Positions 57,272 through 60,598 of a stretch of 64,000 nt of DNA are shown piece by piece (position 1 is the stretch's first letter; every line of letters starts with the position of its first letter). The translations under genes and the position numbers were made by a program. A model generated the notes under the pieces. The model was not told the origin of the DNA. It searched no databases and was given only the letters and a program-made list of their open reading frames with translations. Location: NCBI GenBank assembly GCA_021513715.1, contig CP084167.1:2752001-2816000 (forward strand). The letters run 5' to 3'. This stretch comes from Candidatus Heimdallarchaeum endolithica. GTDB taxonomy: Archaea; Asgardarchaeota; Heimdallarchaeia; Heimdallarchaeales; Heimdallarchaeaceae.

Positions 57272-58582
57272 TCAACTCATTAGTCCTCCTCCTCCCTCCT
57301 CTTTCCTAGTCATTGCGGTTGTCCACCCTGTACGACCTAAAATACTAATAGATTTAGGAGGTTGTAATTTCACGAAATTTGGATCTTTTGAATTGCATAT
57401 TTTAGTAAAAGGACATTCTCTTAATTCAGGGAGCTTTTCTTGAATTCTTCTATTTCTACTTACGTAAATCTCTCCTTCTTGATACTTACAAGGAAGATCC
57501 TTAAAAATTAGACTAGCCCTTTTTCTTTCTCTTTTTTCTTCATAACAAACTTGGCATGTGCTATTCCTGCTAGAGTGCCAAAAGAAAGTGTGTCCTTCAC
57601 TGTCGCATTTGAAAAAAGATAATTTTTCTTTACATAATTCTTTTCCTATTATTTTGTAAATTAAATAGTCCATTTGACAAGGACTTTCTATGGTCTCTGT
57701 TGGATATTTGTCTTTCCATATTTCCCAAACCCTTCTCCAAGCTTTTGCATTCATTTTATCTAACAATACGTACTGATAGCAAAATATGTCTAAAAAACTA
57801 CTTATTAAAGGAATATCTGTTTTTAATATTCCAGTTCTTAATGCAACCCTTATTGTATTAACATCACTTGCTACATCAATTTTATCATAGTTTTTTCCTT
57901 GTGGCCAAACATTTAATTGCCGCATATCTCTTAAAAACATGTCAGTTTTTTTATTTCCAAAACCAGAACCCTTTAATTCTGTCAATAGTTTTCTTATTTC
58001 AAGATAATCTTCGTTAGCATATGAAAAAAGATCAAATGGTTCTAATCCATTTGAATAGAGAAATTCAGCTGTAATTTGTGCATATCTTAATCTTTTATCA
58101 GATTGCGACAACCCTTGAAGCTGTAGTTTTGCTAAAAACGTTTGTGGTTCTTCTAAAATAAATTTTATATCAAAAACTGATGGATCACTTCTATAAATCT
58201 CTGCAAATTCTGAAAAATTTCTAGAACCACGAAAATCTTGATTTGCAGTAAATAATCTAACTTTACAGATTTCTTCTTTTGTGAGATCTAATGTGTCATA
58301 TAGTTCTAAAAATATGTTTTTTCCATATTTGACAAATAAATCATGTAAAACATCAGCAACAGATTCACATTTTTCTTCATGTATGGTTGGATTTAGAATC
58401 TTTTTGTGGTTTTTCTCCCAAAATTTGTGAAAATCTGAAAAATACTCAAACTCTTGTTCAAAAACTTTTATTTTTCCGATTCCTTTGTAATTTGTGTAAA
58501 AATACTGATTTATATTTTTCAGCGTTCTTTTCTGCTCTTGGATATCAGAATGTTCAAGAATTGATTTAATGTCAAAGCTCAA
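57272..58582 (-). CDS. HhH-GPD DNA glycosylase-fold protein with Cys-rich insert
   Basis: HhH LKGSGFGNKKTDMFLRDM, GPD-like VASDVNTIRVALRTG, split FCL-like IGKELC...PC...ECPFTKIC, extra C/H...CQVC. AGGTGA RBS upstream. Confidence 0.7.
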   Translation of the reverse strand: MSFDIKSILEHSDIQEQKRTLKNINQYFYTNYKGIGKIKVFEQEFEYFSDFHKFWEKNHKKILNPTIHEEKCESVADVLHDLFVKYGKNIFLELYDTLDLTKEEICKVRLFTANQDFRGSRNFSEFAEIYRSDPSVFDIKFILEEPQTFLAKLQLQGLSQSDKRLRYAQITAEFLYSNGLEPFDLFSYANEDYLEIRKLLTELKGSGFGNKKTDMFLRDMRQLNVWPQGKNYDKIDVASDVNTIRVALRTGILKTDIPLISSFLDIFCYQYVLLDKMNAKAWRRVWEIWKDKYPTETIESPCQMDYLIYKIIGKELCKEKLSFFKCDSEGHTFFWHSSRNSTCQVCYEEKRERKRASLIFKDLPCKYQEGEIYVSRNRRIQEKLPELRECPFTKICNSKDPNFVKLQPPKSISILGRTGWTTAMTRKEEGGGGLMS

Positions 58583-58747
58583 ATAATCACCTTTTATTAA
58601 TTGAGTTTTTATGCTATTTGTTTCTTTCCTTTTTAAATTAATATTTTTGTTTTTAAATGTTGAAAAAAGATAACCAATTTAAAAATAATGAACATCTTTT
58701 TAATCTGAATTCTAATAGTGTTAATGAAGCAATAGGTTGGAATTTAG

Positions 58748-59683
58748 ATGCAAACAAAAAAGGAGAAAAATAGAAACGAAACATCTAGACAAACATTTAT
58801 TGAAAGTTATATCAATGATAAAAGAAAAAATAAATCTCCAACATTCAAAATTTCTCCTGAACCTGTTGTAAAATGGGCAGGAGGAAAACGTGGTCTTATT
58901 GAACAATATTCGCGTTATTTTCCATCAAACTTCAACTATTATTTTGAACCTTTCTTTGGAGGAGGAGCAGTTTTCTTTCATCTTTCCTCATTGGGTTTGA
59001 TAAAAAAAGCTAAGATTTCAGATATTAATTCTGAATTAATAAACATGTATATTGTAATTAGAGATAATGTAGAAGAACTTATTTTCGAATTGAAGTCTGG
59101 AAAATATTATAATGACAAAGAACAATATTACAAAATTAGAGCAGAAGAGCCAAATGATCCTGTTTTAAGAGCTGCTCGACTTATTTACCTTAATCATACT
59201 TGTTTCAACGGTTTATATAGAGTGAATAAGAAAGGTAAATTTAATGTTCCCTATGGAAGATACCCTAAAGATGTGAAAATTTTTGATGAAAACAATTTGA
59301 GAGAAGTTATGTTGTCCTTACAAAATGTGGAGATAACAGTAGAGGATTTTGAAGAATCTGTAAAAGAAGCTAAAAAAGGAGATTTCGTTTATTTTGATCC
59401 ACCATATGCACCTCTGACTAAAACTGCAGATTTTACAAGTTATACCAAAGAAGGTTTTGGTGAAAATGAGCAAAAAAGATTAGCTGAAGTGTTTAGACAA
59501 TTATGTGACAAAGGCTGTTATGTTATGGAAAGTAATTCTAGCGCCCAAATAATTAAAGATTTGTATTCAGAATTTAATATAATTACTGTACGCGCAAAAC
59601 GGTATATAAATAGTGACCCTTCTGGTAGAAAAGGAGTCGATGAGTTATTGATATTAAGTCCTAACCTTCTAGAAAGTGCCTAA
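58748..59683 (+). CDS. dam: Dam/DpnM-like N6-adenine DNA methyltransferase (alpha class)
   Basis: KWAGGK, EPFFGGGA, SDIN, FNGLYRVNKKGKFNVPYG, DPPY. Confidence 0.93.
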   Translation: MQTKKEKNRNETSRQTFIESYINDKRKNKSPTFKISPEPVVKWAGGKRGLIEQYSRYFPSNFNYYFEPFFGGGAVFFHLSSLGLIKKAKISDINSELINMYIVIRDNVEELIFELKSGKYYNDKEQYYKIRAEEPNDPVLRAARLIYLNHTCFNGLYRVNKKGKFNVPYGRYPKDVKIFDENNLREVMLSLQNVEITVEDFEESVKEAKKGDFVYFDPPYAPLTKTADFTSYTKEGFGENEQKRLAEVFRQLCDKGCYVMESNSSAQIIKDLYSEFNIITVRAKRYINSDPSGRKGVDELLILSPNLLESA

Positions 59684-59698
59684 TTTAGAAAATACCAT

Positions 59699-60598
59699 TT
59701 AAATTTGAACTATATTTGAATTTGATATATCTTCGTTTTTTCGTGGTTTCCTTAAAATATACAGATGTTCGTGCATGATTAAGTGGAAATTATATTTTAA
59801 GCTTTGTTCCTTCCATTTATCAGTACTCTTGCAATTCCATTGGTGTTTGATAATATCTTCCATTAATAGAAATCCACTGTCAAGTGCTGCTTTTAATACA
59901 TATAAAGATAATGGGATATAGTGTCTATTTCTTCTAGTATCCCCAATTAGTAATGCTAAAATTCTATTAGGTACTAATACACGAAAGCATTCGTCTGTAA
60001 TTTTTTTAATGTTCATAAAAAATTGTTCGACATCTTTAATTTGAGATAAATCGTTTGGATTGTCAAAAGAATATTGAATAATATTTAGATAAGGCGGATG
60101 TGTGCATATTAGATTTACACTTTCATCACTGATTTCATTTAAGTTTCTTGCATCTCCATGGTAAAGCTTAATATCTACTTCTCCCTTTGGAGCTATAGTT
60201 TTTTTTAATCTATCTTCTGTTATTTGCAATGGTTTTTTATTAACATCTATTCCAATTCCTTTTCTTTTTAGTAATTTTGTTTCAATTAATGTTGTTCCAC
60301 TCCCAACCATTGGATCAAGAACCACTTCTCCCTCTTTCGAATATCTTAAGACAATGTTTTTAGGTATTTGGGGCGCAAAGTTTCCTCTATAGTCTCCTTT
60401 GTGAGAAGACCAATTTCCTCTTTCCTGAAATGACCAAACTGTTGTTGTTTCTAATTCAAAATTATTATTAGTTTCTTTATAATTATTCTCTAAGTATTTT
60501 TCTTCATAACATAATTTCATATCTGGAAATATCTTTTTTTCACAATTTTTCTCATTTATCACAATATATATACTAACGTATGCTTTTAAACTAAACAA
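59699..60598 (-). CDS. Second DNA amino-methyltransferase (N4-C/N6-A)
   Basis: YRGNFAPQI, LDPMVGSGTT, GDAR, THPPY, HE..YILRK; start may be ATG at MKLCYEE. Confidence 0.85.
   Translation of the reverse strand: MFSLKAYVSIYIVINEKNCEKKIFPDMKLCYEEKYLENNYKETNNNFELETTTVWSFQERGNWSSHKGDYRGNFAPQIPKNIVLRYSKEGEVVLDPMVGSGTTLIETKLLKRKGIGIDVNKKPLQITEDRLKKTIAPKGEVDIKLYHGDARNLNEISDESVNLICTHPPYLNIIQYSFDNPNDLSQIKDVEQFFMNIKKITDECFRVLVPNRILALLIGDTRRNRHYIPLSLYVLKAALDSGFLLMEDIIKHQWNCKSTDKWKEQSLKYNFHLIMHEHLYILRKPRKNEDISNSNIVQI

Follow-up and report, generated by a model that had tools for sequence, protein, structure and literature searches.

A glycosylase-fold protein tied to amino-methyltransferases in Candidatus Heimdallarchaeum endolithica, a candidate GATC restriction glycosylase

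A three-gene block with two methyltransferases

We examined a 64,000-nucleotide stretch of the Candidatus Heimdallarchaeum endolithica genome (contig CP084167.1, positions 2,752,001 to 2,816,000; the window hereafter), in which two DNA amino-methyltransferases (MTases) accompany a 436-amino-acid (436-aa) protein that a preliminary description, made from the sequence alone, had read as a helix-hairpin-helix (HhH) glycosylase taking the place of a restriction nuclease. The three open reading frames (ORFs) were confirmed at 57272-60598, encoding 436 aa (minus strand), 311 aa (plus) and 299 aa (minus), and both the ORFs and the Pfam matches agreed with the earlier placement of the block between ZIP and DUF47-PiT genes. 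The genes of the block and its flanks, in window coordinates, are as follows.

57272..58582, minus strand: 436-aa glycosylase-fold protein, candidate restriction glycosylase and apurinic/apyrimidinic (AP) lyase (ORF, AlphaFold2 model, structure match, homologs)
58748..59683, plus strand: Dam/DpnM-like alpha-class adenine MTase, 311 aa, predicted to place N6-methyladenine (m6A) as G-m6A-TC, divergent from the glycosylase gene (family and PDB matches)
59699..60598, minus strand: permuted amino-MTase (motif I before HPPY), 299 aa, in the DpnA/M2 position (PF01555, E 6e-26)
56328..57158, plus strand: ZIP zinc transporter (PF02535), flank outside the system
60693..62377, plus strand: DUF47/PhoU-like and PiT phosphate transporter genes (PF01865, PF01384), flank outside the system

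The family matches bore out the earlier reading of the two enzymes as a Dam/DpnM-like MTase and a second MTase with an HPPY motif. The 311-aa protein matched TIGR00571 at E 3.6e-88 and, as its best PDB match, DpnM (2dpm, E 2.5e-71). In the 299-aa protein, an N6/N4 amino-MTase, motif I lies at residue 95 and HPPY at residue 167, an order permuted relative to that of beta-class partners; a 287-aa public form suggests a later start codon. The 299-aa enzyme is 55% identical to the MTase within a Dam-DpnII operon (L039). Lone enzymes of the second MTase type (M2) were 51-62% identical to those of DpnII/MutH operons, more than the 39-46% that they share with a CcrM-like orphan of the host genome; long HPPY forms were 44-63% identical to the operon enzymes. 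By these likenesses the 299-aa MTase would probably also recognise GATC. Faint Trm11/Trm14 matches had raised the idea of an N2-guanine DNA methylase, which we rejected as hardly credible because the N6/N4 DNA MTase score is far better and because the enzyme swaps with DpnA-like enzymes across loci, the two differently permuted MTase classes (HPPY and DpnA-like) being interchangeable as glycosylase partners. Long HPPY forms of 470-605 aa (L007:4540-5955, L011:4248-5924, L197:3770-5395) are extended at the C-terminus by about 170-200 residues, and in some of them a second TVW-x-F motif gives the look of a partial duplication.

The host genome is a single contig of 3.33 Mb, 92.6% complete by markers, and its closest public relative, Ca. 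Heimdallarchaeum aukensis, has the same block at 97% protein identity. No match to DpnII (PF04556) or to MutH/Sau3AI-type families was found at the locus or in the whole genome, and the 436-aa protein contained no PD-(D/E)xK or HNH pattern, in agreement with the description of the block as free of such nucleases. A six-frame motif scan of the genome likewise found no 5-methylcytosine (5mC) MTase motif, as that description had held. The host encodes an EndoIII of its own as well as another HhH-GPD gene, and no match to the Ogg2 family PF22175 was found in its genome. In the Heimdallarchaeaceae relatives compared, ZIP did not adjoin DUF47-PiT, and no empty site showing the block as an insertion was seen; no target duplication or long repeat was found around the block, and a promoter and terminator scan of it gave chance-level results.

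Fold, base pocket and predicted dimer of the 436-aa protein

The 436-aa protein had no sequence match in Pfam, NCBIfam, PADLOC or PDB, but 1036 homologs were collected from bacteria and archaea, 430-490 aa in length and, where named at all, called hypothetical; mesophilic examples are A. straminisolvens GAE87844.1 and Kuenenia SOH03350.1. We built an AlphaFold2 model on a 94-row homolog alignment and counted residue conservation on the same 94 homologs. The features discussed below are as follows (window coordinates, all on the minus strand).

57950..57952: Lys211 in the HhH hairpin (G-x-G-x-K), the Schiff-base lysine position of bifunctional glycosylases; invariant in 94/94
57863..57865: Asp240, the catalytic aspartate position, aligned to the EndoIII DTH motif; invariant in 94/94
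57656..57670: Asp305-x3-Tyr309, a guanine-type pocket motif; D305 in 94/94, Y/F309 in 94/94
57488..57631: zinc-ribbon-like insert (C326, H331, C343, C346) within a split C317/C365/C390/C396 putative metal site (conservation and model)
58397..58576: residues 3-62, an N-terminal extension that supplies most of the interface predicted for the homodimer (two-copy prediction)
57275..57373: C-terminal tail, residues 404-436, ending in GGGG-L-M-S-COOH at a constant position and contributing to the predicted dimer interface (homolog ends)

The model was mostly helical with a predicted local distance difference test score (pLDDT) of 92.5, and comparison by Foldseek and VIA-align indicated a two-lobed helical HhH glycosylase fold across residues 58-420. 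All 17 chains matched at Z of at least 8 were HhH glycosylases, headed by Qng1 (7ugk, Z 19.4, root-mean-square deviation 3.5, 265 residues aligned) and followed by AGOG (Z 12.6), EndoIII (12.1), and MutY and MIG at about 10 (MIG 1kea, 9.8); the HALFPIPE fold was absent among the structure matches. Thus the fold check by AlphaFold and Foldseek that had been proposed for this protein came out in favour of the HhH glycosylase fold, and of the earlier comparison with EndoIII the superfamily stood, whereas the nearest structures turned out to be Qng1 and AGOG. Sequence profiles contributed little here: PF10343 (Qng1/Q_salvage) did not match the 436-aa protein at cut-off and matched only two of the 94 members (best E 0.007), and HHalign against Ogg2 gave a probability of 5% (E 0.007), so that the support for the fold comes from the structure match instead. 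Low-scoring profile alignments to Ogg2 and to the host EndoIII placed K211 at the hairpin lysine and D240 at the catalytic aspartate. The motifs picked out earlier, namely the hairpin with its lysine (GFGNKK), the GPD-type aspartate (SDVNTIRVALRTG), the split Cys set and the Gly-rich tail, were all present and were kept across the 94 homologs. These modelling results confirmed that the 436-aa protein adopts an HhH-superfamily glycosylase fold, for which N-glycosylase activity is predicted. One homolog without the glycine tail (L071:386-2227, 613 aa, with an unrelated C-terminus) is possibly a frameshifted or chimeric copy, and no fused forms of 764-2180 aa were found, which is weak evidence.

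We then considered which base the pocket might hold. D305 and Y309 aligned with D194 and W198 of Ogg2, the aromatic residue being Tyr or Phe in this family rather than Trp, and the equivalent pairs are D218/W222 in AGOG, D298/W302 in Qng1 (a correspondence resting on the Ogg2 alignment and published papers) and D184/W188 in Dag1. In OGG1, Ogg2 and AGOG the D-x3-aromatic pair contacts the guanine edge (PMC3397491), and in Qng1 it anchors the 7-deazaguanine ring and discriminates against adenine (PMC9881137); Dag1 has the triad K118, D184 and W188 (bioRxiv 2025.10.29.685425). The position of the C-terminal end is also fixed: a 7-residue end pattern was found in 119 of the 120 best homologs, in which the chain stops three residues past the glycine run, and in most of the distant homologs it stops three or four residues past it. 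The active site of both Ogg2 and Qng1 is completed by their C-terminal carboxylate, and both enzymes lose activity when the C-terminus is tagged or truncated. Because the invariant D305-x3-Y309 and the fixed C-terminal end match guanine-type pockets, the base removed is probably guanine or a guanine analogue, not adenine.

Eight Cys/His residues were kept in 79-91 of the 94 rows, with the ribbon lying inside the split EndoIII-like site. The ribbon region formed beta strands (residues 321-362) in the model, and residues 318-365 matched MCM N-terminal and ribosomal-protein chains at Z about 3. The N-terminal extension falls outside the range aligned to solved HhH enzymes. Two-copy modelling predicted a homodimer with a score of 0.79 (best control, 0.00), contacts agreeing by at least 97% between runs and pLDDT of at least 87; among proteins solved as pairs, 20 of 30 attained the score mark, against one of 23 solved as single chains, counts that apply roughly, since our own alignment was used. 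The predicted interface is built from family-specific parts: residues 3-62, residues 256-264, residue 241 next to the catalytic aspartate, and the 404-436 tail. Qng1 is a monomer (PMC9881137). A dimer of this kind, if the prediction is right, would suit a palindromic target.

Neighbourhoods across the family and GATC avoidance

To follow the proposed link with MTases, 116 homolog loci were reduced to 76 clusters at 90% identity, and the 41 clusters with at least 1.5 kb on both sides were counted. A DpnA-like or permuted HPPY MTase was present in all 41 and Dam in 30; 18 clusters carried Dam, M2 and a nuclease, 12 Dam and M2, nine M2 only, and two M2 and a nuclease, with none lacking an MTase. 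The partner named earlier, a Dam-like MTase, was thus found in 30/41, but the constant partner is the DpnA-type/HPPY enzyme. A DpnII or MutH-like GATC nuclease was identified in 20/41 and no recognisable nuclease in 21/41, so that the earlier idea of a restriction slot filled in place of a nuclease applies to this genome and to about half of the loci, and does not apply to the 20 with DpnII or MutH-like enzymes. Every identified nuclease partner belonged to a GATC family (DpnII, MutH-like) or was a faint PD-(D/E)XK protein, in keeping with the GATC context suggested at the outset. The nine clusters with M2 only are bare MTase-glycosylase pairs, whose genes often overlap or abut.

This linkage extended to homologs at 25-45% identity, which still adjoin Dam, HPPY or DpnA-like genes. 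On the tree (a quick IQ-TREE run) the nuclease label changed at least five to seven times while the M2 MTase stayed. The recurrent partners were amino-MTases, and queuosine or repair genes did not recur among the neighbours. Eight loci had no MTase, and seven of them end within 0.8 kb of the glycosylase gene in one or both directions. At the same site in two relatives of L005 (G303 and G306) the MTase is gone and only a C-terminal gene fragment is left. Among ten genomes with MTase-glycosylase loci lacking an adjacent Dam, all incomplete metagenome-assembled genomes, six showed no Dam-family gene at any position. The 436-aa gene occurred in 4 of 83 genomes of the class, a patchy distribution like that of restriction-modification (RM) systems; within the Heimdallarchaeaceae it was found in four of 31 genomes and a Dam-family gene in ten.

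Two Heimdallarchaeaceae have the same convergent Dam/HPPY pair with a different unnamed gene in the divergent slot. In one relative the slot holds a 211-aa unnamed protein (L179:8613-9248, G002:C33; P0340) with 737 homologs, of which the two examined are convergent with a Dam gene; an AlphaFold2 model (pLDDT 91.9) had no clear fold match and so did not identify the function of the slot, for which this protein is a candidate second unnamed GATC effector. In the other the slot holds a 368-aa protein without a Pfam match (L180:5643-6749, G008:C109), adjoining a convergent PLD-family nuclease gene.

Some cassettes carried further genes. The Kuenenia cassette consists of five genes (Dam-DpnII-MTase-148aa-glycosylase) framed by a direct HU-RseC duplication 6624 bases apart (L197:766-1694, 7390-8318), and in Kuenenia G-m6A-TC is 99.8% methylated (PMC5854607). 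In two distant loci (L014:4351-9824; L120:692-8294) genes for LexA/S24-type regulators lie ahead of the cassette or at its flanks, and the second of these loci has, in addition, a primase-polymerase-like gene that points to an integrated element. Two small unnamed families without a family match lie beside the glycosylase gene in four loci each:

148-196 aa family: L009:3680-4126, L014:8564-9154, L053, L056
116-231 aa family: L008:125-550, L043, L057, L080

Plasmid and phage collections held no match to the 436-aa protein, and the only viral match was a divergent partial homolog (35%; L106:49-411) at the end of a 42-kb IMG/VR contig.

We also asked whether genomic GATC content reflects the action of the gene. 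GATC was among the most avoided 4-mers in the host genome (0.74) and in hosts of minimal cassettes (0.28, in the flanks of MTase-only loci). Relatives without the gene gave 0.58-0.70 in most Heimdallarchaeaceae and 0.06-0.83 in the relatives of L005, and GATC was the most avoided 4-base palindrome in most Heimdallarchaeaceae sampled (L201-L220, L185-L195), even where no Dam gene was found. Because relatives without the gene show equal or stronger avoidance, we dropped GATC avoidance as evidence; it shows an old GATC pressure in these lineages, not the action of the 436-aa gene.

Several further features were recorded around the block. Outside the window, the host genome (G000) has further amino-MTases, namely the CcrM-like orphan, two DPPF and two SPP(Y/F) enzymes (782372-783457, 440466-441386, 18984-19961, 1072045-1073361 and 2748218-2749102), and the MTase at 2748218-2749102 adjoins a 383-aa ORF with a PD-(D/E)xK-like pattern just upstream of the window. 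Within it, 62394-63974 (minus strand) encodes a 526-aa multi-pass transporter-like protein kept in aukensis, whose soluble C-terminal part of about 130 residues appears by eye to be of longin/roadblock type, and 52451-55192 encodes a 384-aa protein (two helix-turn-helix/Lrp-like repeats, by eye) convergent with a helical 527-aa protein that belongs to no obvious family; the two are conserved in aukensis.

A candidate restriction glycosylase and its comparison with known systems

The explanation that we favour, at a probability of about 0.5, is that the effector of the block is a dimeric, m6A-blocked GATC restriction glycosylase/lyase, perhaps also reaching phage sites shielded by 7-deazaguanine. 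For its sequence specificity, methyl block, base removed and restriction in vivo we infer the following scheme. The two MTases, judged by homology, would place m6A on host GATC sites, and the 436-aa protein, predicted to form a homodimer through its extra N- and C-terminal elements, would bind the palindrome. A base, most likely the G of GATC, would be flipped into the guanine-type pocket (D305/Y309), where Asp240 and Lys211 would cleave the glycosidic bond and beta-elimination would nick the strand; two such events on opposite strands would leave unmethylated incoming DNA broken or crippled, while m6A on the neighbouring adenine would block reading of the site. This reading explains why the MTase link is unbroken, why two-gene cassettes occur, why the gene goes where the MTase goes, and why the protein would dimerise. 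As a sub-hypothesis, 7-deazaguanine might be accepted as it is by Qng1, allowing attack on phage GA sites modified by DpdA, and such tolerance would explain co-residence with DpnII in half of the loci. Phage DpdA modifies the G of GA nearly completely, and dPreQ0 saturates GA sites (PMC10484667).

In its most specific form, which we put forward tentatively, the protein would be a dimeric HhH enzyme that acts on GATC in which the neighbouring adenine is unmethylated, taking out guanine that carries no damage as well as 7-deaza analogues of guanine; it would represent a second, independently evolved restriction class. If so, it would restrict ordinary and deazaguanine-shielded DNA, alone or as a second lock in DpnII operons, in many phyla of bacteria and archaea.

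Several observations weigh against a restriction role. A DpnII or MutH-like nuclease in 20 of the 41 loci makes a second GATC restriction enzyme look redundant, which is a weak point, and in nuclease-bearing loci the glycosylase gene is less depleted in GATC (0.55) than the DpnII gene (0.33) and stands about level with Dam (0.53). The eighth MTase-less locus, L040 on a metagenome contig, has flanks of 2.4 and 3.3 kb without an MTase, although repeated genes lie on both sides and the near-identical copies L037-39 carry the full operon. The guanine-pocket argument cuts both ways because the guanine-type HhH pockets that have been characterised accept guanines carrying damage or a modification: the C-terminal carboxylate of Ogg2 discriminates against normal G (PMC3397491), and Dag1 spares canonical DNA (bioRxiv 2025.10.29.685425). 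Finally, the frequent presence of a nuclease beside the gene fits an accessory repair or back-up function equally well.

A gene always found with an MTase, with the nuclease optional, is also the pattern known from Vsr and Mig, and the strongest alternative, though in our view an unlikely one, is a caretaker of the same kind, in which a site-directed repair glycosylase/lyase removes a GATC lesion caused by amino-methylation. Candidate lesions are a 6-oxopurine (hypoxanthine from a flipped adenine), 8-oxoG, an off-target methyl-guanine or an abasic site. Such a caretaker would explain why the intact gene was never seen without an MTase except on one contig while the nuclease is optional, and it would sit comfortably beside DpnII or MutH; moreover, the nearest DNA enzymes are repair glycosylases, and the fixed C-terminus could be an Ogg2-type N7-H sensor (PMC3397491). 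Yet the predicted homodimer with its large extra elements better suits a two-strand attack on a palindrome, most Dam/DpnII systems of the Heimdallarchaeaceae lack the gene, and the host already has EndoIII and the second HhH-GPD gene. Moreover, we know of no product of m6A that is mutagenic in the way that deaminated 5mC is and whose repair would call for a G-type pocket.

Ranked after this, and likewise unlikely, is a Dag-like activity with type IV logic, in which phage 7-deazaguanine derivatives are excised regardless of methylation and the enzyme rides with GATC systems since GA-directed DpdA modification is their loophole. This reading fits the fold best: the top structure match is the 7-deazaguanine hydrolase Qng1, well ahead of the next family (Z 19.4 against 12.6), and the K/D-x3-aromatic arrangement matches the Dag1 triad. 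The saturation of GA sites by phage dPreQ0 (PMC10484667) would make co-residence with DpnII complementary, not redundant. Its difficulty is the MTase, since such an enzyme needs no protective MTase and would be expected alone or in mixed defence islands, as Dags are, whereas an MTase was present in 41/41 loci and 21/41 had no nuclease to back up. In addition, deazaguanine protection against GATC cutters is mixed, as BamHI still cuts iggy and CAjan DNA (PMC10484667) and the resistance of MED16 to MboI is confounded by m6A.

Excision of adenine itself by R.PabI/MutY chemistry, with m6A excluded from the pocket, would draw on the same context evidence as our preferred GATC restriction reading and would offer the simplest m6A block for a base-flipping enzyme, as R.PabI works (PMC4357717); it is nevertheless quite improbable, since the residues equivalent to D305-x3-Y309 contact the guanine edge and select against adenine in Qng1. 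Least probable by far is housekeeping repair or nucleotide salvage of the AGOG or Qng1 type with an incidental position, which could appeal to the fold similarity to both enzymes and to the lack of an Ogg2 match in the host genome, but which the neighbourhood counts already make unlikely, given four genomes out of 83, an MTase link that holds across phyla down to 25% identity, and no recurrent queuosine or repair neighbours.

If restriction is the right reading, a repair fold has been converted into a sequence-specific, methyl-gated weapon, and some 1000 proteins now annotated as hypothetical would gain a function; they lie unrecognised within DpnII-type operons of Asgard archaea, methanogens, anammox bacteria, Clostridia and gut Bacteroidota. 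An m6A-gated, site-specific guanine glycosylase would also be a useful reagent for methylation mapping. The rival readings would be new as well: one would give adenine methylases a repair partner, and the other would place a deazaguanine counter-counter-defence within an RM system. A literature search, whose coverage left most subscription journals outside, found no paper on the 436-aa family, and the reviews of restriction it reached mention no HhH restriction glycosylase, describing base-excision restriction for the PabI/HALFPIPE family only. New here are the co-occurrence with GATC nucleases in 20/41 loci, the rule that the M2 enzyme is the first partner, the argument from the guanine pocket and C-terminus, the predicted dimer and the negative control that relatives provide for GATC avoidance.

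R.PabI is dimeric, and a dimer is likewise predicted for the 436-aa protein. With R.PabI, R.HpyAXII and R.CcoLI (HALFPIPE, GTAC) the proposed shared logic is methyl-blocked excision followed by an AP-lyase nick, with an amino-MTase partner (PMC4357717, PMC10273834). The 436-aa protein is not a member of that group, as it has an HhH, all-helical core with Cys sites; it is also about twice as long, its family has GATC rather than GTAC partners and a pocket pointing towards G rather than A, and it often shares an operon with DpnII.

Among HhH enzymes, Qng1/QNG1 (DUF2419, PF10343), a queuosine-5'-monophosphate hydrolase, shares the K/D pair, the D-x3-aromatic pocket and a conserved C-terminal tail. 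It is, however, a monomeric, metal-independent salvage enzyme with 11% identity to the 436-aa protein, which has putative Cys metal sites, a predicted N-terminal dimer arm and RM neighbours. Ogg2, AGOG and EndoIII share the HhH core and K211/D240, with the guanine pocket in Ogg2 and AGOG and the Cys cluster position in EndoIII, whereas the 436-aa protein is about 200 residues longer, has a non-housekeeping distribution and matches no family hidden Markov model. Mig.MthI and Vsr offer a parallel in a repair-fold gene tied to a methylase locus, and MIG (1kea) is among the structure matches, but they serve 5mC MTases, while here the partners are amino-MTases, no 5mC motif was found in the genome and the pocket motif is unlike the MutY/MIG type. 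Dag1 and Dag2 (bioRxiv 10.1101/2025.10.29.685425) share the HhH superfamily, the catalytic Lys and the D-x3-aromatic guanine pocket, together with a patchy distribution and no sequence-level annotation. Dags were found as stand-alone integron cassettes acting on modified guanine, with no MTase partner described in the parts consulted, whereas the 436-aa family is MTase-locked.

The closest relatives in gene content are the DpnII/MboI/LlaDCHI systems (DpnM, DpnA and DpnB), which likewise combine a Dam-like first MTase, here with DpnM as its best PDB match, and a second MTase in the DpnA position; half of the homologous loci are DpnII-type operons with the glycosylase gene added. The Heimdallarchaeum block differs from these systems in that its genome lacks DpnII and MutH, its M2 enzyme is a permuted HPPY rather than a beta-class DpnA protein, and its third gene encodes a glycosylase fold.

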